Shown here: piece after piece, positions 12,212 to 39,452 of the stretch
How the letters are laid out: every line of letters begins with the position of its first letter
Position numbering within the stretch: the first letter of the stretch is position 1
Assembly (NCBI GenBank): GCA_043767805.1
Contig: JAYUGC010000011.1
Coordinates: 1 to 41,629 of the forward strand
DNA from: Pseudomonadota bacterium
GTDB taxonomy: Bacteria; Bdellovibrionota; FAC87; UBA2466
DNA: 41,629 bases
Direction of reading: 5' to 3'
The notes under the pieces: generated by a model
Databases searched by the model: none
What the model saw: only the letters and a program-made list of their open reading frames with translations
What the model was told of the DNA's origin: nothing
Position numbers and translations under genes: made by a program

Positions 12212-12227
12212 CGGCACGTCTATTGCT
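12212..12227 (+). promoter_or_regulatory. Putative sigma54 promoter for the Cu-ATPase
   Basis: CGGCACGTCTATTGCT, near the consensus TGGCACG-N4-TTGCW. Confidence 0.6.
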
Positions 12228-12431
12228 TCGGTAACTAAAATAGACTTCCATTTCAGGGCAAACCCTCGATAGAAGAGACCGTTAAGAGACATAGGCGTCT
12301 CCGATCAGAGGTAACGAGGGAGACTTAGTCGGCGATCCCCGAAGAGGTAAATCTTAAGGGTGACATTATGTTCAGTTTCGGGCGCTCGAAGACCTAGCTC
12401 CTAAACGGATGACGACCTTGGAGGGTTCGGT

Positions 12432-17195: not shown

Positions 17196-17324
17196 ACTCA
17201 GACACTCCCGAAACCTCTTCGGCATAATCGAAATTACGCATGAAAAAAGCTTCGACACAGTCGTCACAATGTGACGAACTTTGTTTAGTTAAGTGACTGA
17301 GTTTATTAGTTTTTTCCGGGGAAA

Positions 17325-17400
17325 TGGTGGACCGGATGGGGATCGAACCCACGACCTCCTCATTGCGAACGAGGCACTCTCCCAGCTGAGCTACCGGCCC
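17325..17400 (-). tRNA. tRNA-Ala (anticodon CGC)
   Basis: GGGCCGGTAGCTCAGCTGGGAGAGTGCCTCGTTCGCAATGAGGAGGTCGTGGGTTCGATCCCCATCCGGTCCACCA; 76 nt, G3:U70 pair, encoded CCA. Confidence 0.96.
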
Positions 17401-17520
17401 TTACTATCGGCTATTCGCCAAAGTATTCGGCAAGCTACCACCGGTCTTTTTGTAGGGCAATCGTTTAGGATCCCTAAATGCCCCTTGTTCCCACCCAGGC
17501 CCCTCCTCTATAAGAGTCCG

Positions 17521-20846: not shown

Positions 20847-22031
20847 ATGAAGCGTTTCTTTTTTCAGGCGTTTGCCTTGGGGCTTACCGCTTCTTTCAGC
20901 TTGCTCGCCCTCGCTCCTCCGCCCGGCTGTGAGTACGACAAAGAATGTGTGCTCGAATTGCCGGGCGCCATCTGCGCCGACGGCACCAGCTCTTACTACA
21001 CTGTCATTGCTCGTCGTGATTCCGATAATTTGATGATCTTTTTGAACGGCGGCGGCTGCTGCTGGGATCCGGTCACCTGCAGCAAAGGGTACGCGGCGAA
21101 CTTGACCCGCCGGGCTCCGATCATCGATTGGAACAAAGGCACGGGGATTCGCAATCACCTCGACCCGAAAAATCCTTTCGCGAGCTATACGATTCTCACC
21201 GTGCCCTACTGCACGGGAGATCTCTTCATGGGCGATTCCGTTCAGAACTACGGAACGAAGGAAAAACCCTTTATCGTTCGTCATCACGGTTACAAGAACT
21301 TGGAACTCGCCCTCGACAAGGCGGCGCTTCATTTTCCGCGGCCGGACAAAGTGATTATGTTCGGCATGAGCGCCGGGGCGATAGGCGCCTTTCACCATCT
21401 GTCGGGCTTCGATAGCCGTTTTCCGGGCTCGGCGAAATACGTCATTAGCGACGCCGGCACTCCTTTCAAGCCGCCGCATCTCGTGGAGACGAATTACAAG
21501 TCGCTCCTCAGGGTTTGGAACATTTTTACCAACTTTCCCAACAATGAGCTTGGCCGCCCCATCGAGCATTTCGGCGACATGCTCGAGTACAACAAGCGGG
21601 CTTACCCGAATGTCCGTTACGGCTTGGTGCAGGCTTACTCCGATTACATCATGACTTACTTCGCGTACCGGGTCGGCTCGAAGGATCCGTTCAACGCGGT
21701 GAAAACGACCGCCATCGACGTGGCCGATCACTACCTCGGGCCGGATGCCTCGAACGATCGTGTCTTTTACGTCGATAGCTGGGCACATACGCTTTCCGAC
21801 GGGGATCTCGCCAAGACGAAGTCGATGGGAGTTTCTCTCGGCGATTGGCTGACCTCCATGGTGAGTGATTTGCCTTGGGATAACCACCGCCCCGATCTCG
21901 CTGTGCCCACCGGTCAGTTCGTGCCGAAGGCGAAGCCGCCTCAGTTCGTTCGCTTCAACGATCTTTTGCCCACGAGTGGCGCGGCCGAGCAGCTTGCGGG
22001 TCTTGCGCCTCCCGAGATGTTTGGTTTTTAA
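20847..22031 (+). CDS. Exported pectin-acetylesterase/Notum-family hydrolase
   Basis: Signal peptide; CADGT, GGGCCWD, VPYCTGD, GMSAG nucleophile elbow, DAG, late His. Confidence 0.85.
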   Translation: MKRFFFQAFALGLTASFSLLALAPPPGCEYDKECVLELPGAICADGTSSYYTVIARRDSDNLMIFLNGGGCCWDPVTCSKGYAANLTRRAPIIDWNKGTGIRNHLDPKNPFASYTILTVPYCTGDLFMGDSVQNYGTKEKPFIVRHHGYKNLELALDKAALHFPRPDKVIMFGMSAGAIGAFHHLSGFDSRFPGSAKYVISDAGTPFKPPHLVETNYKSLLRVWNIFTNFPNNELGRPIEHFGDMLEYNKRAYPNVRYGLVQAYSDYIMTYFAYRVGSKDPFNAVKTTAIDVADHYLGPDASNDRVFYVDSWAHTLSDGDLAKTKSMGVSLGDWLTSMVSDLPWDNHRPDLAVPTGQFVPKAKPPQFVRFNDLLPTSGAAEQLAGLAPPEMFGF

Positions 22032-22032
22032 G

Positions 22033-23358
22033 ATGCGATTTTTGATAGTTTCCGCTCTCTGCTTCGGTTGGTTCGCCAAAGCAAACCCAGTGAAAGCCGG
22101 TTGGGAAGTGGGCCTCGCGGCGCGCCCCCTCACTTTGCCTGCGGGAGTGCCCCTGGCGGGATACGTCCACGCGATTCGTCGCCGGAACTTATTTTCGACC
22201 AATCTTCCCTTTGCCACTTACTTCAAACCCTCCGTCGGTGCTTTGAGTCCCGTGCGGGCTAAGGCCGCGGTGCTTCGCTCGGGGAAGGAGAAGCTGCTTC
22301 TGGTAAGCCTCGATATTATCGGAGTGACCGAACAGTTGCGTCAGGCCATCGAGCAGTCACTTTCGGGAAAATTCTTGCCGGAAAATATCGTCCTTTCGGC
22401 GACCCATACCCACAGCGGACCGGGTGGGGCCACCAAGCATTGGCTTTGGGAAGCGCTCCTCATGGATAAGTTCAAGCCGCAGCTCTTTCACAACCTCATC
22501 GAGGACGTCGTGTGGGCGGCGAGTGAAGCGGAAAAAGCCTTGCAGCCCGCCGACGTTTTCGCCACCGAGTTCGACACCGAAAAACTCCAGATCAACCGCC
22601 GGGTGCTCGGGGATCCGGTCGATCGGTCCGCGCGGCTTCTCTTATTTAAGAGTCAAAGCGGAAACTGGCTGGGCGCCTGGATCAATTTCGCCGTCCACGG
22701 CACCGCGCTGCACGCGGAAAATCTTTTCTTGAGCGCGGACGTTCCGGGGGCCATCGAGCGTGAAGTGGCCGAGGAACTATCGTCGAAAAACCCGGCGGGC
22801 GCCCCAACGCCCATCGCGCTATTTGCCAACGGAGCCGAAGGGGACGTGTCTCCCGCCGAGCAGGACGTGGCGGGAATCGAATCGATCTCGAAAGGGTTTC
22901 GAGACCAGATGGCTCGCCATTGGAAAGAGAGCTTCCGATCTTTGAAGCCCGGCTGGGTATCCCGGCGAAGCGTCATCGATCTCGGCCGGCCCGCGCTGAG
23001 GCTCGCGCCTTGTATGGGAAGCAGCAGCTGGTATCAGCGGCTCTTGTCGAAGCTTTCTATCCCCGTGGGACTTTTCCTGCCGAGAAAAACGCAGATCGCG
23101 CAAGTGGAGCTCGATGGCATCCTCCTCGCGTCATGGCCCGGAGAGCCGACGACTCAAAGCGCAGAAGAGTTGAAGAAAGCCCTCGCCCATACTTCCCGGG
23201 AAGTTTGGCCCATGGGAGTGACGAACGACTACCTGGCTTACTTTCCCAATCAAACCGAATCGAAAGAAGACAGCTTCGAGAGCTGTTTCAGCTTTTTCGG
23301 CGAAGAGGGCGCGAGCCGCGTTACTGCCGGTCACCGGGCGCTGGCTTCTGCCCCCTGA
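22033..23358 (+). CDS. Exported neutral/alkaline ceramidase-family amidohydrolase
   Basis: Signal peptide; PLAGY, SATHTHSGPG, NFAVHGT, SADVPG, NGAEGDVSP, PGEPTT, NDYLAY. Confidence 0.85.
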   Translation: MRFLIVSALCFGWFAKANPVKAGWEVGLAARPLTLPAGVPLAGYVHAIRRRNLFSTNLPFATYFKPSVGALSPVRAKAAVLRSGKEKLLLVSLDIIGVTEQLRQAIEQSLSGKFLPENIVLSATHTHSGPGGATKHWLWEALLMDKFKPQLFHNLIEDVVWAASEAEKALQPADVFATEFDTEKLQINRRVLGDPVDRSARLLLFKSQSGNWLGAWINFAVHGTALHAENLFLSADVPGAIEREVAEELSSKNPAGAPTPIALFANGAEGDVSPAEQDVAGIESISKGFRDQMARHWKESFRSLKPGWVSRRSVIDLGRPALRLAPCMGSSSWYQRLLSKLSIPVGLFLPRKTQIAQVELDGILLASWPGEPTTQSAEELKKALAHTSREVWPMGVTNDYLAYFPNQTESKEDSFESCFSFFGEEGASRVTAGHRALASAP

Positions 23359-24859
23359 GATCGTTAAAGCCCTTCACGCAGGCCTCGGTGATTCCCCAGC
23401 GATCGTTCATCTGAGAGAGAAGCGAATCGATGGCGGGAAGCCCAGGCGCGGTTCCGGGAGCCGCGGAGTCTTCCAAGTAAAGCTGGCGTAGCAGATAGAC
23501 GGCGTTGGACGCTTCGCCCGTTGCCTCTTGGATGGCCGCCAAGCCCGCTCCGCTCAAAGGCGCATGCACCACGGCCGTCAAATTACGGGGGCCGTTCGGC
23601 GCGAACCGCGGATCGTCGACCGTTTGATCGAAACGGAGTGAGGTGGGAAACGAAATAGGAACGATGGTGACGTTATAGCCATCCTTCTGGAGCTCCTCGA
23701 CAAACGACTTGATGAAACCCGGCCGCACGGGACGCGTTTCGCCGAGACCTCCGCTCAAGGAGCCCTCGGGGAAAAGTATGAACTTGTTTATCTTGCCCGA
23801 CTTGAGCATCGCCCGCACTTTCTCCATGGGCTTTCCGGCGCCTCGTCCGACCATGACGAAGCTATCGCTCGCCTCGAAACGATCCGCCGCCCATTTCCCC
23901 ATGTGGAAATTATCGGCGGCGCCGAAGAAAGCCGAGCCCTTCAGATCGAGCTGGCTCGTGCTGACGAAGTCGAGAAACGGATTACTATGTTGGGGCGTGT
24001 AAATGACGACGTCTTTGGGGCTCCTGGGCTTGACCATATTCTCCGCGCCGACCACGTCGACTTTGAATCCTCCCACTTCTCCCTGCACCTTGAACATATT
24101 CATCATGGCATCGGAAAGCGGGGCCTTGCCGGCCGGTGATTTTTTATACGGGCTTCGGTAAAGTTCCCAGGCCATGGGAACCGCCGCGGGCACGAGGCGC
24201 GCGACATTGAGTAGGGTCCTCAATTTGGAAACCTTCTCTGGTTGCGCCTGGCTTTTGGCCGAGTCCCACTGGGCGTAGAATCCGAAGTCGGCCAGGAGTT
24301 GCCGGCTCTTGTCGAAAACCTCGCGAATGGAAGTTAGCCGCAACGTATCTTTGCCGAGTCCGAAGAGCGGCTTTCTTTCCACGTAGGTGGCGCCGCTTTT
24401 CTTGATTTCCTCGACGGCCGCGCGGAACGCTTCCCTCTTTTTTTCGGGAACGAGGCTCTCGCCCGCGGCGCCTATTTCCTGCGCGAGGGAGACCTGAGCT
24501 TTGACGAAGAAGTCATAGCGAGCATTGGAGAGTGCGTCGTAGCTGTCTTGAAAAGTTTTGAGCTCGGGCAAGAGCTGTTTAAGCTGAGCCAAAACGGGCT
24601 CTCGCTCGGCGGCCGTAAGATTGGGATTGGCGAGGATCTGAAACAGAGCCGACGCCGTGGGATTTTCCGCTTTGATTTTCTCGCCGTGCGCGGCGAGGTC
24701 TTTTTCCTGACGGCGCAAAGCCTCTAGCTGAGTTCCGAGCGCCGGCCGATCCGAATCGGAGACGAGCTGTAAAATGAGCTCGCGCGGCTCCGCTCGTCCC
24801 GTGAGACAAACGAAAAGAAAAGGCAGCGCGAGCCAAAAATTAGGAACGAGTTTCATCAC
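23321..24859 (-). CDS. Lysophospholipid/glycerolipid acyltransferase (LPLAT) with signal peptide and helical N-terminal region
   Basis: QHSNPFLD (HX5D), FPEGS, IVPISF; N-terminal MKLVPNFWLALPFLFVCLTGRA. Confidence 0.75.
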   Translation of the reverse strand: MMKLVPNFWLALPFLFVCLTGRAEPRELILQLVSDSDRPALGTQLEALRRQEKDLAAHGEKIKAENPTASALFQILANPNLTAAEREPVLAQLKQLLPELKTFQDSYDALSNARYDFFVKAQVSLAQEIGAAGESLVPEKKREAFRAAVEEIKKSGATYVERKPLFGLGKDTLRLTSIREVFDKSRQLLADFGFYAQWDSAKSQAQPEKVSKLRTLLNVARLVPAAVPMAWELYRSPYKKSPAGKAPLSDAMMNMFKVQGEVGGFKVDVVGAENMVKPRSPKDVVIYTPQHSNPFLDFVSTSQLDLKGSAFFGAADNFHMGKWAADRFEASDSFVMVGRGAGKPMEKVRAMLKSGKINKFILFPEGSLSGGLGETRPVRPGFIKSFVEELQKDGYNVTIVPISFPTSLRFDQTVDDPRFAPNGPRNLTAVVHAPLSGAGLAAIQEATGEASNAVYLLRQLYLEDSAAPGTAPGLPAIDSLLSQMNDRWGITEACVKGFNDLRGQKPAPGDRQ

Positions 24860-25114
24860 GGGCTAGATCCCCCACCAGGCCTGTAAGTAACGCGTCTTGG
24901 CATTGTATCATGTTCCTGAGGGGTTCTTCGCGGTCAAAAAAGACCGGCGCACTTCTGGTGTACGTCCGCCACTTCGTCGTATTCAACGCGAGCACAAACG
25001 GGATCACCTCTCGCCGCGAGCCGCTACTTCGCTGCGTCCTGACAACCCATGCCAAACTTGACTACCCTAAGTGAAGGCATACCATCGCCTCCGAACTCCA
25101 AGGGGTAGGTTCAC

Positions 25115-26047
25115 ATGAAAGCCTTTTTAGGATTGTGGTTCCTGTTCGGTACGCACGGGGTCGGCTATAGCGTGGATGTCCCGGTCCCGGGCCACGCCTG
25201 CTATCAGTACGAGTCCACCGTCCTTCAGCGCAAGGTCGGCTATTGCCTGCACCGCTCGCACCCGGAGCTCCCCGCGGTCGACGAGCCCGTCGTGTACTTC
25301 TTCCACGGCATGGGCGGCAATGCGACGAGCTGGCTGGGCGAAGGGTACGGCGAAGTCGTCAATACGCTCACGCAAAGCGAAGGCTTTCCCGCGACGACTT
25401 TCGTTTCCTTTGATACCGAGTCGCATAGCTTTTTCTCCGACTTCGGGGGCAAGACCGCGGGCGGTAAGGCCTACGAGACTTGGTTCGTGAATGAGTTCAT
25501 GCCGCACATCGAGCGGACTTTTTCCGTTTGCCGCAAGCGCGAGTGCCGCGCGACCTTGGGTCTTTCGATGGGAGGGTTCGGCGCCTTGAGGACGGCGTTC
25601 CGCCATTCCGATCTTTTTAGCGCCGTCGCCGTCAATTGCCCGGCCTTGCCTCCGTTTAGCGCTTATCGCCCCTGGGCGGATTGGAAAGCTTACTTCACGC
25701 GCCATCCGGTGGGACAAGCTGAGGGCACTTTCCTCCTGGTCTATTTGAGAAAGATGTTCCCGACCCAAGACATGTCCGACGGCAACGATCCGTCGTTCCT
25801 CGCGGACCATTTCGCCGACCTCGCTCAGTTCCCAAAGATTTACTTCGATATGGGCGGTAAGGATTATTTTGGTTTCCAGGAAGGCTACGAGCGCTTCAAG
25901 GAAATCCTCGATCGCCGCGGCCTCGGGTATAAGAGCTACCTCGATCCGGAAGCGGGCCACGACATCAGCCACAAGACCCGCTGGAACTCGGTCCGTTTCC
26001 TGCGCGACGCCTGGAGAATCCCCCAGACCGCTCCGGCCTTGAACTAG
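25115..26047 (+). CDS. Exported alpha/beta-hydrolase esterase (putative esterase/FrmB-like family)
   Basis: YFFHGMGG, GLSMGGFGA, G.KD, AGHD; hydrophobic N-terminus. Confidence 0.85.
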   Translation: MKAFLGLWFLFGTHGVGYSVDVPVPGHACYQYESTVLQRKVGYCLHRSHPELPAVDEPVVYFFHGMGGNATSWLGEGYGEVVNTLTQSEGFPATTFVSFDTESHSFFSDFGGKTAGGKAYETWFVNEFMPHIERTFSVCRKRECRATLGLSMGGFGALRTAFRHSDLFSAVAVNCPALPPFSAYRPWADWKAYFTRHPVGQAEGTFLLVYLRKMFPTQDMSDGNDPSFLADHFADLAQFPKIYFDMGGKDYFGFQEGYERFKEILDRRGLGYKSYLDPEAGHDISHKTRWNSVRFLRDAWRIPQTAPALN

Positions 26048-26122
26048 CCAGGGCGCCGGAAATTAAGCAGAGCCCGGCACTAGCATGGTCGAGTATACGG
26101 GCTATTCGGCTCTAGGAGCGAT

Positions 26123-28075
26123 TCACAGCGGTTTTACGACCACTGACCCGTCCGCGCCCACCGTAATATCTAAATTCTCGAGCACCGGGCGTCCCGCGGC
26201 CGTGGGGATGTCCCCGCGTCCTCGCAGAATCGCCGCCACGTCGAGCGGCTGATCCGTCCCGTTGGTCACCGAGACTTTACCCTTCAAGACCGTTTCAGAG
26301 AGATTCACGGCCCCCTGCACATTCAGCTTATCCAAGTGGAGCAAGCTGGTATTTTTCAGGTTGCCCTGCATGGTATCCACGTTTTCCCAGTACTTGTCTT
26401 GACCTGGGGGCGGCTTGAAAGACGCTGCCGGTGAATGTCCCGGCCTATGGTTCACAAGGCCCATGGTCTTAGGATTTAAGGAAAACCGATCTGAGTGCAA
26501 CTGCATCACGAGATCAAAGCCTGTTTTGATGGGCCCGAAGAAATCGGTTCGCCGTTCCTTCTCGACGTTGATGAACGTCACGAGCGGCTCGCCGTACTTG
26601 GCGCGCCAGTACTTATCCAAGTTCAAGACGGTCGAGCCCATCGCTCCTTCGAGCTGCAAGTACTCCCGCACCTGCCCGTCGAAGTCCGTCTGCTTTTTCC
26701 ACTTGTCGATGAGGTCCGGCATGAGGATTTTCATGACTTCCTCTTCGCCGATGTCCTTGACGAGCTGTTTGATTTTGGGAGCCAGGACGTCGTAGTTAAA
26801 GAGCGCCATATTCGTATTGAAGAAGGCGATCTGATCGCCTCGCTTCACATCGATACCGAGCTTTTGAAAGAGCTCGAGCTGATTGGCGTCTTCCGCCTGC
26901 GCCGTCTCGATGATGGTTGCATAGACGGTTCCATCCGCCTTCCTGACGACGGCGATTTGGCCGCCCTGACGGTCCACTCCGGTTTTTTCGGTGGTGACCA
27001 TTACGATGGGAACCTTGTTTCTCACCATCCAATCGACCATCGCTTGATTGGGCGTGCTCGAAAGATCTTCTCCGTTTCCGATGACCGAGACCAAAGGCTT
27101 GCCATGGCTGTTCGGCAAGGCGCCCGGAATCCATGCCGCGCGGATAGCGTCCACGCCGAAAAGCGCGTGCCCTCCGGGTGAAGTGCGGTTGAAGTTCAGG
27201 TTTCCCTGCTTATCCATGGTCGGGAGATGCGCCTGAAAGGTGTCCTTGAAGCGGTCCAAGCTCGGCAAGTCGTTGACGAGCTGGGAATAGGTCTTCGTGG
27301 CATCGAGAAGGGACGGCTTACTCCACACTTTCTCCATGGACGCTTTCGTCTCGGTTCCCACTATGTCGTGAAAAATGACTCCGCCGAACTCTCCCCGCTG
27401 AGCGGAGAGAATCATTTGTAAGATCTGCGCTTCCGCGAGAGAGACCTTTACCTTCTCACTGGGTTTCAGTGGATTGGGCAAGTCGATGTAGATGTCCGTG
27501 CCCTTGGCGCCGATGTGCACGTCTTCCACCGCGATTCCGAGAATCTTGGAAAGGTAGATTTTACGATCCATGGCGGAACCGGTCCCCGCGAACATTTTCT
27601 TCACCCAGAGCCAGGCTTTCGTCGGGGGCTGGCCAGCGACGGCCGCTTCGACCGCGCTCAAGGAAATGTTCGGAAGGTGCGCCATCATGTCTGGCGGCGC
27701 GATGGCCGTGGGGAAGGCAACCGCACTGCCGTCGTCCGGGCGCCCTTCCTCGAAAATGGCAACCTTTTCCGTCGCCTTCCCGTTCTTCTTCATTCTATAG
27801 AGCGAGTAGAAGTAGGTGAAGTTGAGGTCGTCGAGACCCAAAAGTTTTTGGAGCGCGTGGCGCGCTTCTTCTCCCTCGGGGCCCGCTTCGAGCCCTGCCG
27901 CCGCCATCTCATTCATGGCTTTCCGGTACTCATCCGTGGCACGGGCCTTGCCGGAGACGCCGATGTAATCGGCGTAACAATCCCACTTCGAGACCGCTCC
28001 CACCGACGTCAATGACGTGGCGGCGAGCAAAGAATAGGTAATAACGTTTCTCAGCAAACGAGATCTAAATTCCAC
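26123..28075 (-). CDS. Eukaryote-type (UDPGP family) UTP--glucose-1-phosphate uridylyltransferase with signal-peptide-like N-terminus
   Basis: KKMFAGTGSAM..GAKG (compare KLNGGLGTSMG..GPKS), PGGH, NGEDL, GGQI, FNTN, QLEGAMG, FGPIKT, C-terminal L.V.G.V beta-helix-like repeats. Confidence 0.8.
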   Translation of the reverse strand: MEFRSRLLRNVITYSLLAATSLTSVGAVSKWDCYADYIGVSGKARATDEYRKAMNEMAAAGLEAGPEGEEARHALQKLLGLDDLNFTYFYSLYRMKKNGKATEKVAIFEEGRPDDGSAVAFPTAIAPPDMMAHLPNISLSAVEAAVAGQPPTKAWLWVKKMFAGTGSAMDRKIYLSKILGIAVEDVHIGAKGTDIYIDLPNPLKPSEKVKVSLAEAQILQMILSAQRGEFGGVIFHDIVGTETKASMEKVWSKPSLLDATKTYSQLVNDLPSLDRFKDTFQAHLPTMDKQGNLNFNRTSPGGHALFGVDAIRAAWIPGALPNSHGKPLVSVIGNGEDLSSTPNQAMVDWMVRNKVPIVMVTTEKTGVDRQGGQIAVVRKADGTVYATIIETAQAEDANQLELFQKLGIDVKRGDQIAFFNTNMALFNYDVLAPKIKQLVKDIGEEEVMKILMPDLIDKWKKQTDFDGQVREYLQLEGAMGSTVLNLDKYWRAKYGEPLVTFINVEKERRTDFFGPIKTGFDLVMQLHSDRFSLNPKTMGLVNHRPGHSPAASFKPPPGQDKYWENVDTMQGNLKNTSLLHLDKLNVQGAVNLSETVLKGKVSVTNGTDQPLDVAAILRGRGDIPTAAGRPVLENLDITVGADGSVVVKPL

Positions 28076-28595
28076 TTGAACTTCCCCCTACGGCCCAACA
28101 ACGAGTCTCGACATTATGCGGGAGTCCGAAACCCCATATCAAGACGACACAGAGGGAATGCGGATCTCACGCGAAGATTTTTTTCGTAGTCGAATGCGAG
28201 CGGTCTGCGTCTCTCGGCGAGTCAGTTTGAAAATCCTCTCGCTCGTATAATAGAGGCCCATTTCGGTGGAGTGGGTTTTGCAATACGAGTTGGCGCTGGA
28301 ATTTTTGTGCGCGGGAGTGGTTTGAGCCGGAAAACGCCGCGAGGTGTTCCCGGCCCGGATCGCGAAGTCGGCTACGACGGAGTCGATTCTCCGCCGAAGT
28401 TAGACAGAACACGGAGAAGTGACCGCCAAGGCAGACCGGCGGTCTTCGGAACGACTAGGGAACAGTTCCGAAGGCTTCAAAGTGAATACGATTTTCGTAA
28501 AGATTTGCGCATAGGTTTTGCAATTGATGCCGGGACGTCGAGGCGAAACGGCTGTGCAAGCTTAAAGCGCAGAGAAAGTCCGGGGGGACTTGGGG

Positions 28596-29969
28596 ATGTC
28601 AAAAGGTCTAACTTACCAATTTTCACTCTATTTGTGCCTGGTGGCGCTCGCTCTCGTCGCGCCCGCGGCCCATGTGCTCGCCGAGCCGGCGGCGCAGGCG
28701 CCCGCGAAACCCGCTCAAAAGATCGTCATTCTTTGGGGCAGCATCGGCGCAGGTCATAAGACCGCGGCCGAAGCCGTCGCCGCCGAAGTCCAGAAGAAGT
28801 ACCCCGGTGCCGAAGTCATTCTTAAGGACTCACGCGAGTTCGGGAACAAGTATATCAATGCCGCCAGTCTCTGGGGTTACGACTTTCTGACTCAGCGCTG
28901 GCCCAGTCTGTATGACAAGGGCTTCACCGGTTACATGCAAAAAGGCAAGACCATGCCCATCTCGGAAATGGGAATGGCGAAGAGCTACGGTACCGAGACT
29001 GCGCTGCGCTGGCTGCACGAGCAGGAGCCGACGCTCATCATCTCCACTTACAATCCCATGACCGAAGGCCTCATCCGGCTTCGCAGTCAGGGGCATCTCA
29101 AAGGCGTCCCCGTGGGCTGGACGCATACCGATTTCGTGGATGAAGAGTATTTCCGGAAAGTGGCCAAGGAAATCGACATGACCTTTCTCGCGCACGACGC
29201 GCTGAAAGAGTCGTGGATAAAGGCGGGAGTTCCCGAGAGTAAGCTCATCGTCACGGGCATGGCCATCAAGAAGGATTTGTTCAAGCCTTTGAGCGCGCAG
29301 GAGCAGAGCGATTTCCTCGTTTCCAAGGGTCTCGATCCGAAGGTGCCGACCATCACGCTTCTCGGCGGATCGGCGGGCGTCGGTGATTTCGTAACCCAGG
29401 TGAAGAGCTTGGAGAGCTCCTTTGACGGGCCCGTGCAAATTTTCGCCATGGTGGGAAAGAACAAGCGTCAGCAAAAGAAGCTCGAGGCTCTGGCTAAGAA
29501 GCTTCGCCCCGGCATTACGCTCAAGATTTTCGGCTGGACTCCGCAGAAAGAACTTTTGCCGTACCAGCAGTCGTCTTTCTTGGTTTCGACGAAGAGCGGC
29601 GGGCTCGCGCCCGCCGAGGTCGCGTCCATGAACAAACCCATGATCCTCCTGGACATCAATGGCGGTCAGGAGCGTTACAACGCCGAGTTTCTCACTCGTC
29701 CCGGTCAGGACATGGGAGTGGCCACGGCCGATCAAACGCAGGTGGGGCCTTTGGCTCGCCAGCTCTGGGAAGATCCCGCGCGCCGGCAGGCGATCGTGGA
29801 GAACCAGATTCGTTTTGGCGAAATGACCCAGCCTGGGCGCGCGGCCGATTGGGCCGTGCAGGCGAGTGACGCGTCCGGAGTGAGATTGTCGAAAGCCGAC
29901 GCGCCTCCGGTGAGGCCTTCACTTTTGGCTACGATTTGTAATTTTGGACGGTTGAGCAGCAAGCGGTAA
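28596..29969 (+). CDS. GT28 MGDG-synthase/UgtP-like glycolipid glycosyltransferase with signal peptide
   Basis: SIGAGHKTAA, HTD, TGMAI, GGSAG, TKSGGL, GQERYNA; N-terminal LYLCLVALALVAPAAHVLA. Confidence 0.85.
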   Translation: MSKGLTYQFSLYLCLVALALVAPAAHVLAEPAAQAPAKPAQKIVILWGSIGAGHKTAAEAVAAEVQKKYPGAEVILKDSREFGNKYINAASLWGYDFLTQRWPSLYDKGFTGYMQKGKTMPISEMGMAKSYGTETALRWLHEQEPTLIISTYNPMTEGLIRLRSQGHLKGVPVGWTHTDFVDEEYFRKVAKEIDMTFLAHDALKESWIKAGVPESKLIVTGMAIKKDLFKPLSAQEQSDFLVSKGLDPKVPTITLLGGSAGVGDFVTQVKSLESSFDGPVQIFAMVGKNKRQQKKLEALAKKLRPGITLKIFGWTPQKELLPYQQSSFLVSTKSGGLAPAEVASMNKPMILLDINGGQERYNAEFLTRPGQDMGVATADQTQVGPLARQLWEDPARRQAIVENQIRFGEMTQPGRAADWAVQASDASGVRLSKADAPPVRPSLLATICNFGRLSSKR

Positions 29970-30000
29970 TCGGCGGAAGTTTATTGGGCTATAGGGGAAG

Positions 30001-33000
30001 ATGATGCAGTCAAATTACGGGATGAAACGTTTGAAAATGTTCGTGGTGACGCTGGTTCTTTTGAGCCTTCCCGCCTCCCTACGTGCGGAATCGGATCCGA
30101 AGCCGATGCTTCGCTTGACGGGGCCGGCCTCGTCGATAGTGCCGCTTCCGGACGCCGTTCCGGTAACGGCACCGCCCGCAACTCCAGTTGTCGAGCCGGC
30201 TCCCGCGCAGGACGCGGCCACCGGTCCCACGAAGCCGCGTAAACTCGTCATTTTTTATTCGACCATCGGACAAGGCCACGAGAGTGCGGCCAAAGCCATC
30301 AAGGCGCAGGTCGAAGCGCGCGAGCCCGGCACCGAAGTCGTCCTGAAGAATAGCCGAGATTTCATTACGCCGAAGTGGTGGGCCAAGTGGGATGAGCGCA
30401 TCTATTGGTTCATCGTCAAGAAGACGAACAAGTTTGAAGGCTTCTATCAGAGTCATATGAAGAGCGGCCAAGCCGCGTCGAGCCTTCAAGATCTCGGTAC
30501 GGATCTCGATCACCCCGCGGTCGCGGCTTGGCTGAAAGAGCAAGCGCCCGACGCGGTCATCGCGACCCACGCCAATTCGGCGCAAATGCTGAGTAACCTC
30601 CGTCAGGACCGGTTGCTCACCGCGCCTCTCGGCTGGCTCAATACCGATTACATCAAGGGCTACTTTCCGCGCATTTCCAAAGCCGTGGACATGAGCTTTT
30701 TACCGCACCCCGAGCTCATGAGCATCTATGAAGCCGCGGGAGTCGATCCGAAAAAATTCGCGTCGACCGGCATGCCCATATCCAAAGTCTGGACGGATCC
30801 GCCGAAGCCTCGCGCGGAAGTCTTGGGTGGCATCGGGCTCGATCCGAACGTGCGCACGATTACGCTCTCGAGCGGCGCCGAAGGCGTTGGCGATTTCGCC
30901 GACGTCGTGAAACAGATCGCGTCCCAAACGAAGGACCCCGTCCAGATCATTGCGGTCGCCGGTAAAAGCAAAGCGAACTTCGACAACTTGAACAAGCTGC
31001 TGAAGACCTTGCCTCCGCACGTGACCTTGAAGGTCTATGGCTGGAGCACGGAGCTTCCGACTTTCGTGAAAGCTTCAGACCTCTATATCACCAAAGCGGG
31101 TGGCCTTTCTCCGACGGAAGCTTTCGCCGCCAACGTTCCTACGGTGGTGATGGAGGTTTATCACGGGCATGAAGGCGAGAACGCGACCCTCTTCGAAAGA
31201 TTGGGGCTAGCGACGATTTCGCGCGATCCCAAAACCGTGGGTAAAGAAGTGCTGCGCCTTCTCGGGGATCCGGCGACTCAGCAAAAGCAATTGATCGCCC
31301 AGGCCGCGTTTCGTAAGTCCATGGATCTCACACCGGTCGTCGACTTCGCCTTAAAAAGCAGCACGAGTGTTCCGGCCGCCGATCTCGTTCCCGGTCATGA
31401 GACGGGTGCCGAGTATTCGAACGTCGCCAATACTTTCAGAAAGCTCGATTTGGATCTCCCGGCCGAGGCCGAGATTCTTTTGAGCTATCCGAAGGCCGGC
31501 TGGCCGAAAGCGGGAGAGCCCGTCACCGATGGGCATGTCGCCATCCGTATCGGTCAAGACGTGCTCGTCTTCAATCCGGACACCAAGGAAATGGAGAAGA
31601 CTTCCCTTACCGAGTACATGTACGGCACCAAGAATAAATCGGGCAAGACGGGTAAGGCGGGAGTCACGTACGGCGTGGCCTACGAGCGCGACACCCTTGG
31701 CGTGCGTTTTAGCGGGCTCGACGCGAGCCGTCTCAATGACATGTCTCAAGAAGGCTTGCGCGCTCTCGTCGGCAATTATGAGCATTCGGATCGCGGAGCG
31801 ACCGAGCTCATAGCTCACATTCTATCGAGGGCGAACCTGGGAGAAATTCCCAAGCCGAAGAAGGGCGCCATCACGCCACTCGACGTAGTGAACCACTACA
31901 TTGGGAAGCTTCAGGCGAATCCGAACATCAAATCGGTTCTCGTTAACTACGCCCACACGCCGGGCGTGGGAAAGCAGCCGACTAACCGCCAGGCTTACAT
32001 TTTAGGGATGCTCGGTTTCACGCCGAAGGGCGGCCGCGATCTTCTGACTCGGGCGAGCAAACGCGTCACCTCTTACGTCGGCGATAACTCGCTTCACTAC
32101 GAAGACATGGATGGCGTGAGCCAAGCTCGCATCGAGTCCAACACCGCGACCCTCGCGACGAGGACGAGCGAAGGCCGTGAGCCTTTCCGTCAGCAGGAGG
32201 AAAAAGTTCATGAAATGTTCAAAGGCCTCAAGGCCAAGGGCTACACGGCTCCCGAAGTCTCCAGGCGCGTGAAGGACTTCATGAGCGCGCTCAGCGAGAC
32301 CGAGCAGGTCGCCGTGCGCGAGGGCCATTTTGATACGCTTACCGGAGAAGTGGCCGAGAAGGCGAAGGCGCTCCGTGATTTCGTGACGGCCGCCAATACC
32401 GGAATGAAAGAGTTCCACGCGGCCTACGACGACTTCAACTCGAAGAAGCTCGAGCACATGGTAGAGGTCAACCACTTGCGCTTGGATTCGCTGATGGCGG
32501 AGCTGGCTTTGCGCTTGACTCCGAAAGACATGGCGGCGATCCGCAAGAAGTTCGCGCTCGCGGAGAAAGAGTACGACATTTATATGAAGAGCCGCGTGCT
32601 CTACAACCAGCCTAAGGACGTGAAGCGCATCAGCGGCGTCCGGGCGTACATGCAGCATTCGAAGGAGCTCATCCAGCAAGCCGACCGCGCGGTCCGGCTG
32701 GCTAGCGGAGAAAAGTTACCTACTACGCCCATCCTCGAACGCTTAGGCGGTCTGTTGAAGACCGTCGATCTCGTGACCGGCGCGCTTCAGATGATCGGCA
32801 CCGCGGCCATCAAGCACGGCGAGTTGCCCAACGGACAAACCCCCCTGTCCGAAGGCTCCTTCAACTTCATGGGCCGTTATGGCCGCATCGAAGGTATGAA
32901 GGTGAAAGTCGAAGGCAGAGAGAATCTTCCGGCCCCCGGTGCGGGCAAGGTCGTCAATCTCTACGCGGTCCAGCACGCCAATCCGCTCTTGGATAATATG

Positions 33001-33627
33001 GCGATGGCGAAGCTCGGTCTGAAGAACTTCGGTATCTTCGGTGCCGTGGACGACTTCGGTCAGCCCAAGTTCTTCGCGGACTGGCTCGATCAGAGCGATC
33101 ACTTCATTGCGGTCGGACGCGGGTCGGATAAGCCGATCGAAAAAGCTGTGGCGATGCTAAAGCGCGGCAAGACCAACGACTTCGTGATTTATCCGGAAGG
33201 CAGCGTCTCCGCCGGTCTCTATGAGACCCGGCAGCCGCGCGCGAAGATGGTCGATGGCCTCATCAAGCGCCTCCAGGCGGAGGGGTATGAAGTGAACATC
33301 GTGCCCATCAGTCTCCCCGACAATTATCGTTATAACTCGGTGTGGAACTCGAGCACCGTAGACCCGAACCCGAAGGACCTGAAAGTCATCGTGCATAAGC
33401 CGGTACCCCCCTCCGAATGGCAGGCCATGCAGGCGCTGTCCGGAGACACACAAATCGTTAACCATATGCTTCGGCAAACTTGGATTAACGAGCGCCCCGA
33501 GGGCGAGTCGTATGTGGCCGGTATGCTGCGTATGGACGAGCTCACCGAGCGTGCGGACCAGTACGTGCTGGGTAGCAACTCGAACCGTTGTCCTTTCAGC
33601 GCGCTTATGCGGCCGCAGGCACAATAG
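30001..33627 (+). CDS. 1208-aa fusion: signal peptide + GT28 glycosyltransferase + papain-like middle domain + helical region + LPLAT acyltransferase
   Basis: IGQGHESAA, NTD, TGMPI, TKAGGL, GHEGENA; middle GHVAIRIG; C-terminal QHANPLLD, YPEGS, IVPISL. Confidence 0.82.
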   Translation: MMQSNYGMKRLKMFVVTLVLLSLPASLRAESDPKPMLRLTGPASSIVPLPDAVPVTAPPATPVVEPAPAQDAATGPTKPRKLVIFYSTIGQGHESAAKAIKAQVEAREPGTEVVLKNSRDFITPKWWAKWDERIYWFIVKKTNKFEGFYQSHMKSGQAASSLQDLGTDLDHPAVAAWLKEQAPDAVIATHANSAQMLSNLRQDRLLTAPLGWLNTDYIKGYFPRISKAVDMSFLPHPELMSIYEAAGVDPKKFASTGMPISKVWTDPPKPRAEVLGGIGLDPNVRTITLSSGAEGVGDFADVVKQIASQTKDPVQIIAVAGKSKANFDNLNKLLKTLPPHVTLKVYGWSTELPTFVKASDLYITKAGGLSPTEAFAANVPTVVMEVYHGHEGENATLFERLGLATISRDPKTVGKEVLRLLGDPATQQKQLIAQAAFRKSMDLTPVVDFALKSSTSVPAADLVPGHETGAEYSNVANTFRKLDLDLPAEAEILLSYPKAGWPKAGEPVTDGHVAIRIGQDVLVFNPDTKEMEKTSLTEYMYGTKNKSGKTGKAGVTYGVAYERDTLGVRFSGLDASRLNDMSQEGLRALVGNYEHSDRGATELIAHILSRANLGEIPKPKKGAITPLDVVNHYIGKLQANPNIKSVLVNYAHTPGVGKQPTNRQAYILGMLGFTPKGGRDLLTRASKRVTSYVGDNSLHYEDMDGVSQARIESNTATLATRTSEGREPFRQQEEKVHEMFKGLKAKGYTAPEVSRRVKDFMSALSETEQVAVREGHFDTLTGEVAEKAKALRDFVTAANTGMKEFHAAYDDFNSKKLEHMVEVNHLRLDSLMAELALRLTPKDMAAIRKKFALAEKEYDIYMKSRVLYNQPKDVKRISGVRAYMQHSKELIQQADRAVRLASGEKLPTTPILERLGGLLKTVDLVTGALQMIGTAAIKHGELPNGQTPLSEGSFNFMGRYGRIEGMKVKVEGRENLPAPGAGKVVNLYAVQHANPLLDNMAMAKLGLKNFGIFGAVDDFGQPKFFADWLDQSDHFIAVGRGSDKPIEKAVAMLKRGKTNDFVIYPEGSVSAGLYETRQPRAKMVDGLIKRLQAEGYEVNIVPISLPDNYRYNSVWNSSTVDPNPKDLKVIVHKPVPPSEWQAMQALSGDTQIVNHMLRQTWINERPEGESYVAGMLRMDELTERADQYVLGSNSNRCPFSALMRPQAQ

Positions 33628-33684
33628 GGGTGTCATAAGGCCCTGCTGACAAGATAGGGGAGGAATGCTAATTCCTCCCCTTAT

Positions 33685-35025
33685 ATGAAACTCTTGTTAG
33701 TCTTGGTTTTGGGGTCGGGATTGGCCTTTGCGGCCACTCCTCAGGTGGCAAAACAACCGTTCCTTTGGGGCGTATCCAATTCCTCCTTTCAGGTGGAAGG
33801 GGCCGAGCCCAAGGACTCCGATTGGCTTCGTTGGACGAAGACTCCGGGCAAGATCCGGGACGGGTCCAACGCCGATCGGGCCACCGATTTCTGGAACCGC
33901 TACGAAGAGGACTTCAAGCTCGCGCAAGACGCCGGCCTCAATGCGTTTCGCATGAGCATCGCCTGGGAGCGCATCCAGCCTGCCCGCGGCCAGTGGGACG
34001 AAAGAGCGCTCGCGCATTACGAAAAGATAATCGAGTCCATGCGCAAGTTCGGGCTTGAGCCCGTAGTGACGCTCCACCACTTCGTGCTTCCCGGCTGGGT
34101 CGCGGATGACGGTGGTCTTCTTTCCAAGACGTTCGTCGCGGATTTCACCGCTTACGCGGATAAAGTCGTGAACCGGCTTTCTCTGAGCACGGCCAACGTT
34201 CATTACTGGATGACTTTCAACGAGCCCGAGATTTTGGTCCGCGGCGGCTTCTTGACCGGAGACTGGCCCCCGGGCTTTCAAGACACCAACAAGGCTGCTC
34301 AGGCCTTTGCGCAGCTCGCGCGCGCGCACATCGAAGCGGTGAGAGCCATTCGCGCGCACCGGTATGCCGAAGTTAAAGTTAGCGTCGCGAAGAACTGGCA
34401 AGTGTTCGAAATGGGCGACGCGAACCCACTCAGCTTCGCTGCCATGAAGCTTTTGGACGGCATCTACAATCAGCAGTTCCTTCAGGCGCTTCACACGGGA
34501 AAGCTTAATATCTGGATGCCGGGCGCGACCCGCATCAAGGAAACCATCGCGCTTCCCGGCGGCCGCTCGACTCTCGACTACCTCGGCGTGAACAACTACG
34601 GGCGCTGGCTGGTGAAGTTCACCACCAAGGCGCCGTATTACACGTCGGCCGTCGGCCCGGGCGACAAGAACGATCTCGGCTGGGAAATTTATCCGAAGGC
34701 CATCTACAAAGTGATTCAGGCGGCGTCGGCGTACAAAGTGCCGGTGCTCGTGTCCGAGAACGGACTTGCGGACGCGAAGGATCAGCTGCGGGCGAAGTTT
34801 TTGACGGACCACATGGAGTGGATCGAGAAAGCGCGCGCCGATGGTTACCCGGTCATCGGGTATCTCCACTGGTCGCTCACCGATAATTTCGAATGGGCGT
34901 ATGGTCTGACGCCTCGGTTCGGCTTGGTCGAGATCGACTACGCGACCGGAAAGCGCTCGCCGCGTCCTTCCTTCGGGACCTATGCGGGGCTCGTTCTGAA
35001 GTATAAGAAGCTTCACCGCGAGTAG
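33685..35025 (+). CDS. Exported GH1 beta-glycosidase
   Basis: FLWGVSNSSFQVEG, RMSIAWERI, TFNEP (acid/base), SENG (nucleophile), DNFEWAYG..PRFGL; signal peptide ending AFA. Confidence 0.93.
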   Translation: MKLLLVLVLGSGLAFAATPQVAKQPFLWGVSNSSFQVEGAEPKDSDWLRWTKTPGKIRDGSNADRATDFWNRYEEDFKLAQDAGLNAFRMSIAWERIQPARGQWDERALAHYEKIIESMRKFGLEPVVTLHHFVLPGWVADDGGLLSKTFVADFTAYADKVVNRLSLSTANVHYWMTFNEPEILVRGGFLTGDWPPGFQDTNKAAQAFAQLARAHIEAVRAIRAHRYAEVKVSVAKNWQVFEMGDANPLSFAAMKLLDGIYNQQFLQALHTGKLNIWMPGATRIKETIALPGGRSTLDYLGVNNYGRWLVKFTTKAPYYTSAVGPGDKNDLGWEIYPKAIYKVIQAASAYKVPVLVSENGLADAKDQLRAKFLTDHMEWIEKARADGYPVIGYLHWSLTDNFEWAYGLTPRFGLVEIDYATGKRSPRPSFGTYAGLVLKYKKLHRE

Positions 35026-35037: not shown

Positions 35038-35075
35038 AAAAGGGGGGAGCCTTTTCAGGTTCTCCCCTTTTTTTT
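35038..35075 (+). terminator. Intrinsic (probably bidirectional) terminator
   Basis: AAAAGGGGGGAGCCT-TTTC-AGGTTCTCCCCTTTTTTTT directly after the GH1 stop. Confidence 0.85.
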
Positions 35076-35312: not shown

Positions 35313-36485
35313 TTAATAGAGGAGGAATTTGCGGCGGAGTTTTAGGAAGTCTTGGCATTCTTTTTTGGATTTGGCGAGGAAGTCGCGGACGCCGCCGGTT
35401 TTCTCGAGCTCTTCGCGTAACGCCGCGCTGCCCGCGATCAAATCGATGGGCATGCGCGTGTGCTCGTACTCGTAAGGCGGTTGCTTCCACTGAAATTTGC
35501 CGTCCTTGCCTTGGCGGTAGAATGCGGCGAGGAGCTCGATCCCGGAGCGGAAAGGCTGATAGAGCTTTCGGTTGGTAACGTGAATCTGAACGCCGCCCAA
35601 AACCTGGTCTTTTCCCTTTTGATAGGTCGGCTGGAAGTAAATGGCGCGGAAATAGACGCCGGGAAACTTCTTCTTGTTCATCTCGTCGGCGAGCTTGTCC
35701 GGATCGACGTAAGGCGCGCCAATCCACTCGAAGGGCTTGGTGGTGCCGCGTCCTTCCGAGACGCTCGCTCCCTCGAAATGCACGGTACCGGGAAATGTGA
35801 GCGCGGAAGTGAGATTGGGGATGTTCGGAGAAGGGGAAACCCAATCGCGTCCCCAGGTGTCGGCGTCCATGGGACGTTTCCAGCCTTTGCACTCGATGAC
35901 GTCAAGATTGCAGCCGATGCCGTATGCCTCGTTGAAGAGACGCGCGAGCTCGCCCATGGTCATGCCGTGGCGAGTGGGCATGCTGTACTGGCCGACGAAA
36001 GACGTATAGCCACTTTCTAAAACGTTACCTTCCACCAAAACGCCGCCGATGGGATTGGGCCTATCGAGCACGATGACCTTCTTGCCCGTTGCTTTAGCGG
36101 CGCGCATGCAGTTGGCCATCGTGTACATGAAAGTGTAAATGCGAGTGCCGATGTCTTGGAGATCGACGACAAAGGCATCTACTTTTTCGAGAAGCGGAGG
36201 CGTCGGCTCGCGAGAGGTGCCGTAGAGGCTATACACCGGCAGGTTGATCCGCGGGTCGATGAAGTCCGAGGACTCCACCATATTGTCCTGCTTTTCGCCG
36301 CGCACGCCGTGCTGCGGGCCGATGAAGCAGGTCACGTTCAGCTTCAGCTTTTTCTGCAAGACAAGATCGCTGATGTGCTGGAGCCGTCTGTCGACGGACG
36401 CCTGATTGCAAAGCACGCCCAAGCGCAGCTTACGGTACTTCGCGTGGCTTTTAGCGAGAAAGATTTCGAGCCCGGTGGCGATCAT
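35313..36485 (-). CDS. namZ: Exo-beta-N-acetylmuramidase NamZ (DUF1343/YbbC)
   Basis: NQAS, GPQHG, SLYG, DLQDIGTRIYTF, LDRPNP, RHGMTMGELA, SPNIP, SEGRGTT.PFE. Confidence 0.92.
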   Translation of the reverse strand: MIATGLEIFLAKSHAKYRKLRLGVLCNQASVDRRLQHISDLVLQKKLKLNVTCFIGPQHGVRGEKQDNMVESSDFIDPRINLPVYSLYGTSREPTPPLLEKVDAFVVDLQDIGTRIYTFMYTMANCMRAAKATGKKVIVLDRPNPIGGVLVEGNVLESGYTSFVGQYSMPTRHGMTMGELARLFNEAYGIGCNLDVIECKGWKRPMDADTWGRDWVSPSPNIPNLTSALTFPGTVHFEGASVSEGRGTTKPFEWIGAPYVDPDKLADEMNKKKFPGVYFRAIYFQPTYQKGKDQVLGGVQIHVTNRKLYQPFRSGIELLAAFYRQGKDGKFQWKQPPYEYEHTRMPIDLIAGSAALREELEKTGGVRDFLAKSKKECQDFLKLRRKFLLY

Positions 36486-36495
36486 GCTGTTTCCT

Positions 36496-37875: not shown

Positions 37876-37881
37876 GGGATT

Positions 37882-39363: not shown

Positions 39364-39452
39364 GGATTTATATGTTTTACCTTGGGGGCGAAGGATTGGC
39401 CAGAACCTTCCGGTGGCCAGCGCGCGATCAATCACCTATCATGACTTAGCCG

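Follow-up and report, generated by a model that had tools for sequence, protein, structure and literature searches.

The closest described relatives of the glycosyltransferases considered here, UgtP/YpfP and plant MGD1, do their work at the cytoplasmic or stromal face. Ceramidases and esterases of the PAE/Notum and PF00756 types are commonly secreted, and enzymes of the Lnb and PLAAT types work on phospholipids without acyl-CoA. Counterparts of these enzymes adjoin one another in the stretch of DNA analyzed here, which is referred to as the window and comprises the whole 41,629 nucleotides of contig JAYUGC010000011.1 (assembly GCA_043767805.1; contig C11 in our numbering), part of a 4.5 Mb Bdellovibrionota genome in 204 contigs. 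Eight adjoining genes of mixed orientation span positions 20847-35025 of the window and encode proteins which all begin with a signal-type segment, and related sequences come almost solely from metagenome-assembled genomes (MAGs) of the Bdellovibrionota. The presence of export signals on lipid-modifying enzymes suggests that membrane lipids are rebuilt outside the bacterium's own cytoplasm, and we read the cluster, at a probability of roughly 0.5, as a putative set of extracytoplasmic lipid-remodelling enzymes of a predatory-type Bdellovibrionota bacterium.

Every domain in the cluster belongs to a known superfamily. What appear to be undescribed are the clade-wide relocation of GT28 glycosyltransferases by signal peptides, a fusion of three enzymes in one protein, and an exported LPLAT family; full-text literature searches, judged by titles and the beginnings of abstracts, returned nothing on this subject. 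The enzyme identities proposed in a preliminary description of this DNA are borne out by Pfam for seven of the eight genes, the exception being the stand-alone acyltransferase (AT, 23321-24856, minus strand), whose LPLAT label is upheld by predicted fold and motifs. The genes and the hairpin that follows them are listed below.

20847-22031, plus strand: PAE/Notum-like esterase, 394 residues (Pfam PF03283, E 2e-16); signal-like N-terminus, then Cys-Glu-Tyr-Asp
22033-23358, plus strand: neutral-ceramidase-like amidohydrolase, 441 residues, catalytic domain only (Pfam PF04734, E 2e-28)
23321-24856, minus strand: stand-alone LPLAT-fold acyltransferase AT, 511 residues (assigned by fold and motifs); signal, helical region of about 180 residues, acyltransferase domain
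25115-26047, plus strand: PF00756-type esterase (esterase D / antigen 85), 310 residues (Pfam PF00756, E 7e-16); short signal-like N-terminus, then Cys-Tyr-Gln-Tyr
26123-28075, minus strand: UDPGP-family protein (eukaryote-type UDP-sugar pyrophosphorylase-like), 650 residues (Pfam PF01704, E 8e-12); signal-like N-terminus, then one Cys
28596-29969, plus strand: GT28a, stand-alone MGDG-synthase/UgtP-like GT-B glycosyltransferase, 457 residues (Pfam PF06925 and PF04101); signal, Ala/Pro linker
30001-33627, plus strand: GT28b fusion, 1208 residues (Pfam GT28 domains); C-terminal LPLAT motifs
33685-35025, plus strand: GH1 beta-glycosidase, 446 residues (Pfam PF00232, E 2.5e-83); signal peptide by heuristic
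35038-35071, plus strand: strong terminator-like hairpin (15-bp stem, then a T run) closing the GT28a-GT28b-GH1 unit, judged by stem length and position only

Taken over the whole region, terminator-like sites are no more numerous than in shuffled sequences.

Signal-type N-termini and the comparative evidence for export

The N-termini were evaluated using a crude heuristic of our own (not SignalP) that looks for a net positive n-region, an uncharged hydrophobic core and a small-x-small site. All eight proteins pass, with a basic segment followed by a hydrophobic segment and an AXA-type site; the hydrophobic cores are short (about 11-17 residues in most of the eight), and the weakest cases are the esterase, which has a short core, and the PAE-like protein, which has a 25-residue uncharged stretch. 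The start codons agree with this, in that G-rich Shine-Dalgarno-like runs precede seven of the eight signal-bearing starts, including the PAE ATG at 20847 and the UDPGP-like GTG at 28075, while the eighth, the ceramidase ATG at 22033, lies one base after the PAE stop and is coupled to it. The eight signal-peptide-like N-termini reported in the preliminary description are thus all recovered. Automatic gene callers sometimes remove these signals: the database version of the UDPGP-like protein (P0001, 626 residues) begins 24 codons later, without a signal and at a position with no Shine-Dalgarno-like run, and the signal of its homologue in locus L003 is likewise cut off in the database. Because ceramidases and esterases of the PAE/Notum and PF00756 types are commonly secreted, the anomaly is confined to the UDPGP-like, GT28 and LPLAT proteins.

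Signal retention among homologues, which had been named as a point of comparison, is found in the GT28, fusion, GH1, ceramidase-like and Lnb-like homologues of 12 other loci, all of which have a positive n-region and a hydrophobic core, and in many of the GT28 and fusion homologues the small-x-small site lies just 2-6 residues ahead of the first beta-strand. The family in which GT28 is joined to an NlpC/P60-like domain was collected using a 690-residue protein of a complete genome of the phylum as the query, and the class counts that follow refer to the 120 matches listed out of 134. Sixty-one of these start directly at strand 1 (MKIILFYSSIGQGH...), those named including Syntrophaceae, Smithella, Desulfomonilia, Lebetimonas and others. 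Another 14, among them Acidovorax, Polaromonas and Rhodoferax, bear a hydrophobic helix and then an Arg cluster, whose position after the helix places the catalytic domain on the cytoplasmic side. In about 30, a positive n-region and a short core are followed by an AXA-type site that precedes strand 1 by 2-6 residues, and lipoboxes occur in three proteins (P0136, P0185 and P0197).

A tree of 114 of the listed proteins contains one split, with support 1.0, which separates a signal clade of 33 members from another clade of 81. Signals or lipoboxes are present in 32 of the 33 members of the signal clade, the exception being a truncated gene call, as against a signal in one of the 81 members of the other clade, where 56 start directly at strand 1 and 14 have the cytoplasm-facing anchor. 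The named members of the signal clade are all Bdellovibrio, Bdellovibrionaceae or Bdellovibrionales, and homologues of about 690 residues bear the source names Bdellovibrio sp. 22V and sp. HCB2-146. The donor motifs are mostly kept in this clade (K[AS]GG in 28 of 33, GHE..N in 30 of 33). The median number of Cys residues in the 640-residue core is 2.5 in the signal class (n=30), compared with 5 in the anchor class (n=14) and 6 in the direct-start class (n=57), and the low count would fit an oxidising compartment. The comparison of the two clades is the strongest new evidence that these enzymes would be exported and, judging from the sequences, export of the proteins of the eight-gene cluster is likely. 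The signal-less combination of GT28 with an NlpC/P60-like domain (700-890 residues, P0138-P0232) is widespread outside the phylum, occurring also in Pleomorphomonas and in a Methanomethylovorans MAG, and the GT28-NlpC/P60 family as a whole appears to be uncharacterised.

A separate observation concerns the residues which follow the signals. In three unrelated cluster proteins a Cys just after the signal is succeeded by aromatic or acidic residues: GCEYD in the PAE-like protein (region 20847-20960), ACYQYE in the esterase (25115-25215) and DCYADY in the UDPGP-like protein (27970-28075). Loci L036-L049 and L094 were also considered. The pattern, which was defined post hoc, matches six of the 1223 signal-like gene calls in the genome, three of the six being these same proteins; candidate roles for the Cys are sorting, an intermolecular disulfide or a modification site.

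The enzymes and their described counterparts

The GT28 domain looks, by sequence, like an ordinary UDP-sugar:diacylglycerol transferase. The two GT28 proteins, which are both of the PF06925 genes of this genome, score 58.5 and 52.5 bits against PF06925 (gathering cut-off 25) and 28.9 and 30.8 bits against PF04101 (gathering cut-off 22). They share with UgtP/YpfP and MGD1 the GT-B fold, the MGDG_synth N-domain, the GxGH loop (GAGH at 51 in GT28a, GQGH at 90 in the fusion) and the donor motifs TK(S/A)GG and G(Q/H)E..N (TKSGG at 332 and GQERYN at 357 in GT28a), in an alignment of about 360 residues; GT28a aligns over 359 residues to MGD1 (4wyi, E 1e-13) and also to the processive diacylglycerol beta-glucosyltransferase 9wde. 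Following the MGD1 literature, we take the His of GxGH to be the proposed catalytic residue and the other two motifs to be UDP-binding. The cluster proteins differ from these relatives in that their scores of 88-95 bits (87.9 and 94.9 against NF010135) do not reach the equivalog cut-off of 500 for diglucosyl-diacylglycerol synthase, the nearest NCBIfam model to GT28a being the diglucosyl-diacylglycerol synthase PRK13609, below its cut-off. They differ further in that proteins of the cluster type bear a Sec signal or lipobox and are mostly fused to NlpC/P60-like, LPLAT or PLD domains.

The fusion consists of a signal (residues ~1-29), a Pro-rich linker (30-80), GT28 (~82-455), a permuted NlpC/P60-like domain (~456-700), a helical linker and an LPLAT-fold domain (~940-1190). 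Its earlier label of GT28-acyltransferase fusion holds at both ends but misses the domain between them, which makes three enzyme parts and not two. GT28a is 34% identical to the N-terminal part of the fusion and AT is 33% identical to residues 802-1164, so that the fusion resembles two stand-alone genes joined. Elsewhere GT28 is repeatedly fused to lipid-acting domains, either NlpC/P60-like plus LPLAT or two PLD domains, which fits the theme of lipid synthesis and remodelling first suggested for the cluster. Signal-bearing GT28-PLD proteins with two PLD-type domains are encoded in L094 (7942-10695, minus strand), L097 (9185-11935, plus strand) and L098 (10232-12760, plus strand). The last two loci share a gene adjoining GT28-PLD which, scanned in L097 only (11932-12789, minus strand), encodes an EEP-family phosphodiesterase (sphingomyelinase/PLC-type fold).

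The middle domain of the fusion is assigned, with moderate confidence and from motifs and a predicted structure, to the permuted NlpC/P60 superfamily (Lnb/LRAT-like). DUF4105/Lnb is described in PMC12994826 as a permuted NlpC/P60 His/Cys acyltransferase clade which is sister to a phospholipase toxin clade. An alignment of the middle domain with those of ten homologues contains a conserved NPFGH and, about 90 residues later, NCAD, and the His followed by the Cys is conserved in 10 of the 11 aligned domains and in 29 of the 33 signal-clade proteins. This permuted order, with His before Asn-Cys, is shared with Lnb/DUF4105, LRAT/PLAAT, YiiX and Tox-Act1. Unlike in those enzymes, the domain here sits behind a glycosyltransferase, the window copy has no Cys, and all matches fall under the curated thresholds: Lnb_N (DUF4105) matches in Pfam are weak (E 0.01-0.02) and are found for three of the 11 middle domains and for the stand-alone 446-residue protein which accompanies the fusion in some genomes. 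The model of the domain, which is of modest confidence (pLDDT 66.9), has as its best Foldseek match the YiiX-like cysteine peptidase 3kw0 (E 2e-3, probability 0.94), with YiiX itself and the acyltransferase RID domain ranked lower. Comparison of the middle domain with the 446-residue Lnb-like protein using hhalign gives a probability of 56% over only 51 columns, which makes their kinship a lead.

For AT and the C-terminus of the fusion, the LPLAT assignment is supported by predicted fold and motifs and not by a family model, since AT has no Pfam or NCBIfam match even at permissive thresholds and neither protein matches PF01553 even at E <= 5. The AlphaFold (AF2) model of AT (pLDDT 75.5) has as its best nine Foldseek chains members of the LPLAT group exclusively (E 1e-6 for 5kym to 8.5e-3 for 5f2z, TM 0.30-0.50), the matches including PlsC (5kym), plant GPAT (1iuq and 1k30), LpxM, human GPAT1 and PatA. 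Four conserved blocks, PTH-x5-D, VGRG, (Y/F)PEGS and NIIPV, occur in LPLAT order across 15 aligned C-terminal domains, and are represented by H-SNPFL-D at 290, VGRG at 336 and PEGS at 363 in AT and by HANPLLD at 992, VGRG at 1038 and PEGS at 1065 in the fusion. The His and Asp of the first block are invariant or nearly so, and the VGRG and PEG(S) blocks are conserved as well. The domain shares its predicted fold and the order of its four blocks with PlsC, GPAT, LpxM and PatA (5kym, 1iuq, 5knk, 5f2t). It differs from them in the spacing HX5D in place of HX4D, in the helical region of about 180 residues that lies N-terminal to it, and in the signals borne by most of the family. Strict membership of the PlsC-type family is not supported, given the spacing and the missing PF01553 match; one homologue (P0170) bears a precomputed PF01553 label.

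The AT family is small: an exhaustive profile search of 1.84 billion proteins collected 213 representatives at E <= 1e-3, and a word-based homologue search with AT found nothing beyond AT itself. Among the best 150 of the 213, 91 of the 137 Met-started members are signal-like, compared with 31% of gene calls genome-wide, and several of the remaining members of the 150 have visibly truncated signals. Matches of the AT alignment to sequence profiles from the PDB (coiled-coil, designed-protein and penicillin-acylase), which fall on the helical region, were rejected as spurious. The preliminary description held that such acyltransferases use acyl-CoA or acyl-ACP. This need not be so, since tafazzin is a CoA-independent LPLAT transacylase; a donor in the periplasm could be neither acyl-CoA nor acyl-ACP, and we propose a tafazzin-like transacylation.

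The UDPGP-like protein scores 45 bits against PF01704 (gathering cut-off 22), over profile positions 193-410 only, which form the C-terminal half, and the profile of its family matches the UGPases 3gue, 2oef and 2i5k. The half which aligns with these eukaryote-type enzymes includes NGED, TEKT..GG, EGAMG and the P-x-K loop, whereas the N-terminal third is unmatched, the family here has about 600-650 residues, and part of it bears a signal and a single Cys before the core. The motifs AGTGS at 163, NGED at 334 and PIKTGFD at 515 lie in columns that are invariant across 25 homologues; as a possible counterpart of the N-terminal nucleotide-binding Gly-rich loop, the variant AGTGS(A/S)M is kept throughout the family, yet it falls outside the Pfam and PDB profile alignments. 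Named records of the family are confined to Bdellovibrionota MAGs. Exactly one Cys is present in 13 of 17 signal-bearing homologues, and Cys-enriched columns are found only just after the signal; cysteine pairs, which would be a sign of a disulfide, are ruled out in these proteins, there being one Cys and no pair. The same genome contains a signal-less paralogue (58% identity; contig C164, 4934-6673, plus strand), whose ATG overlaps the stop codon of a gene for a 423-residue multi-helix membrane protein (C164, 3666-4937), probably a permease, and the pair is syntenic in L009.

Among the hydrolases, the PAE-like protein has NOTUM as its nearest solved chains (E 1e-6), and no such gene was found beside GT28 genes in the other loci examined. 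The ceramidase-like protein aligns to the human and Pseudomonas neutral ceramidases 4wgk and 2zws and shares with the bacterial enzyme the catalytic-domain motifs HTHSGP (residue 125) and GDVSP (270) as well as probable secretion, but it has 441 residues against about 640-690 and lacks the C-terminal tail domain; the NCBIfam equivalog ceramidase_neut (NF041649) is not reached (67 bits against a cut-off of 1200), only the N-domain being matched. In L094, whose genome belongs to the family of the window, a 52%-identical homologue of the esterase is placed between GH1 and the GT28-PLD gene, and a sister species has a further homologue near NamZ. The GH1 protein scores 280.5 bits against PF00232, matches 159 solved GH1 chains at E <= 1e-30, and has both catalytic Glu motifs (NEP at 179, ENG at 358). 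An inverted repeat, GGGGAGGAAT...ATTCCTCCCC, occupies positions 33640-33684 immediately 5' of the GH1 start codon and holds the sole Shine-Dalgarno-like sequence there; it might terminate transcription of the fusion gene or control the translation of GH1.

Conservation of the cluster and its surroundings

A survey anchored on the fusion covered 401 sampled genomes of the phylum. The query has matches in 46 of these, and the full fusion is present in nine, including this one, which belong to several Bdellovibrionota families. GH1 adjoins the fusion in seven of the nine (and a GT28-family gene in eight of 14 loci), the ceramidase-like gene in five, a stand-alone, signal-bearing Lnb-like gene (446 residues) in three and the UDPGP-like gene in two, with one further genome pairing a UDPGP-like gene with a GT28-PLD protein. 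The order and orientation of the genes vary between families, which points to selection on proximity. The conserved core consists of the GT28 fusion, GH1 and the ceramidase-like gene, with or without the stand-alone Lnb-like gene, while the presence of PAE, AT, GT28a and the esterase varies. No conserved transporter or secretion gene was found beside the core in the loci examined.

The UDPGP-like gene was followed at 54 loci of species-representative genomes. Only two of these loci and the second copy in this genome, taken together, hold any of the other seven cluster genes, so that the eight genes do not stand as the unit that was first proposed, and no conserved neighbours were found at the 54 loci beyond close relatives. 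The second-largest neighbour "cluster" of this gene was rejected as an antisense shadow open reading frame.

Directly downstream of the cluster, at 35313-39435 on the minus strand, lie genes for NamZ (exo-beta-N-acetylmuramidase), an SLT lytic transglycosylase and an S13 D-Ala-D-Ala carboxypeptidase, a peptidoglycan-remodelling trio with 78% DNA identity in the sister species, in which the lipid cluster was not found; the sister-species contig stops 3.8 kb past NamZ, which limits the synteny comparison. Elsewhere in the window, a tRNA-Ala(CGC) at 17325-17400 (minus strand) lies within the 5' end of the longest open reading frame for GCS2 (glutamate-cysteine ligase 2; 17293-18855, plus strand), so that the true GCS2 start is further downstream. 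A copper-handling region (3128-5877, 9376-11102 and 12432-14795) encodes a multicopper oxidase, CopB, a P-type ATPase with YHS and HMBD domains, and four small signal-bearing proteins of no family. At 6913-9165 (plus strand), adjoining a 6-phosphogluconate-dehydrogenase-like gene, glucose-6-phosphate dehydrogenase is fused to 6-phosphogluconolactonase in a single 750-residue protein.

Alternative readings and significance

In the reading preferred here, the proteins would be exported by Sec, some homologues as lipoproteins, which is the most probable of its steps. The LPLAT-fold and Lnb/LRAT-like NlpC/P60 enzymes, with PLD in the sister architectures, would then act on membrane glycerolipids without acyl-CoA, the GT28 domain would glycosylate the resulting diacylglycerol-type acceptor, GH1 would trim or reverse the beta-glycoside and could also transfer its beta-linked sugar, and the ceramidase-like enzyme and the esterases would strip amide- and ester-linked acyl groups. 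The chances that glycolipids are formed in this way outside the cytoplasm appear evenly poised. A signal-bearing UDPGP-like enzyme might further make UDP-hexose locally from UTP and hexose-1-phosphate, a step which is plausible only in an invaded prey cell, where prey contents leak, because both substrates are needed, and which we regard as doubtful. The net effect would be the conversion of phospholipid to neutral glycolipid in the predator-prey compartment.

A number of observations weigh against this reading. To our knowledge nucleotide-sugar GT-B enzymes are cytoplasmic, and we know of no periplasmic source of UDP-sugars. The hydrophobic N-termini may serve as anchors, either uncleaved or monotopic. 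Codon 36 of the fusion, which falls between its signal and its GT28 domain, is an in-frame ATG from which a signal-less product is possible, and the low Cys count of the signal class may instead be a lineage effect. In the alignment of middle domains the window fusion keeps the His (DGHVA at 510) and lacks Asn-Cys, and since its Cys is gone this copy of the NlpC/P60-like domain is probably inactive in that function. The sister species, a member of the same genus with a genome that is 93% complete, yielded no match to the fusion, which makes the cluster accessory. The UDPGP-like gene lies beside GT28 genes in only three genomes (the window, L003 and L006/L097), and its family, in a count of 41 full-length members which leaves out partial matches and four loci where no start could be located, divides into 17 signal-like and 24 other proteins, with both kinds interleaved in the tree. 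Many relatives, including the second copy in this genome, have no signal, and given this mixture and the few linkages to GT28 the protein may have another role. Finally, 1223 of 3909 crude gene calls of the genome (31%) pass the signal heuristic and a second run of eight passing genes lies on contig C81, so that a run of exported-looking proteins is not rare in this genome; the unusual point is which enzymes bear the signals.

The last of these observations also favours the view that there is no system at all, and that unrelated secreted hydrolases and a few mis-annotated genes adjoin by chance in a secretome-rich genome. Transcription of the genes runs in at least four directions, and PAE, AT and GT28a are not conserved neighbours, which agrees with this view, but the fusion recurs with GH1 (7/9) and with the ceramidase-like gene (5/9) across families in varied gene orders, three architectures join GT28 to lipid-acting domains, and AT and GT28a have their paralogues in the two ends of the fusion. 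Chance adjacency may account for PAE and the esterase; for the core, recurrence argues against it, and as an account of the whole it is very unlikely. The supposition that the N-terminal segments are uncleaved anchors, with the catalytic domains carrying out an ordinary cytoplasmic pathway of UDP-hexose and glycosyl-diacylglycerol synthesis and acylation like that of UgtP and PlsC, has in its favour that the chemistry needs cytoplasmic substrates, that outside the phylum the homologues are either cytoplasmic or held by an anchor which turns them towards the cytoplasm, that PlsC-type enzymes have hydrophobic N-terminal helices, and that the window fusion has the internal ATG noted above. The preliminary description had named such anchors, along with mis-called starts, as what would overturn its proposal, but the N-termini examined here do not refute it. 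They have the N-in orientation, the positive charges come before and not after the hydrophobic core, the cores are short and are followed by AXA-type sites, three homologues have lipoboxes, the Arg-after-helix anchors of betaproteobacterial members of the same family look different, and the GH1, ceramidase-like and Lnb-like partners bear the same type of signal, so that this reading is rather improbable.

Export might also serve the producer itself. The enzymes would then act on its own envelope, at the periplasmic face or outer membrane, where the phospholipids of the producer would become neutral glycolipids or lyso/acyl variants, perhaps as a way of sparing phosphate or of guarding against its own phospholipases, with GT28 using another donor or working as a transglycosylase. 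This possibility draws on the same export evidence as the reading preferred here; variants with a lipobox would be held at the membranes of the producer, no secretion-system or prey-targeting gene is conserved beside the core in the loci examined, and GH1 enzymes can transglycosylate lipids without nucleotide sugars, as plant SFR2 does on MGDG. On the other hand, the exported clade retains motifs of the UDP-sugar type, and three genomes have a signal-bearing UDPGP-like gene next to GT28, both of which point to a nucleotide-sugar donor that the bacterium's own periplasm is not known to hold, and action on the own envelope is, on balance, an unlikely alternative that deserves to be kept in mind.

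Under the preferred reading of extracytoplasmic lipid remodelling, three types of enzyme with a supposed need for cytoplasmic substrates (the UDP-sugar GT-B lipid glycosyltransferase, the PlsC-fold acyltransferase and the enzyme of the UDP-sugar pyrophosphorylase type) would, if export is real, have been moved outside the cell in one lineage, the relocation of the glycosyltransferase family apparently being one evolutionary step. To the known enzymes this would add an exported LPLAT family and a GT28-NlpC/P60 fusion family which is widespread outside the phylum in a cytoplasmic form, and it would bear on how intraperiplasmic predators re-use or remodel prey membranes and on the small molecules present in invaded prey. 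A bolder and quite tentative version, which we think unlikely to hold in full, is that Bdellovibrionota glycosylate lipids with nucleotide sugars outside their own cytoplasm after invasion. An exported UDPGP-like enzyme would supply UDP-hexose locally out of the UTP and hexose-1-phosphate that leak from the prey, exported GT28 fusions would use it to convert diacylglycerol derived from prey phospholipid to neutral glycolipid, the LPLAT, NlpC/P60-like or PLD modules would provide the acceptor, and GH1 and the ceramidase-like enzyme would adjust the product. If this is true, the GT28 enzyme would have no known precedent among bacterial GT-B lipid glycosyltransferases in acting extracytoplasmically, and the invaded prey would be an extension of the metabolic space of the predator.

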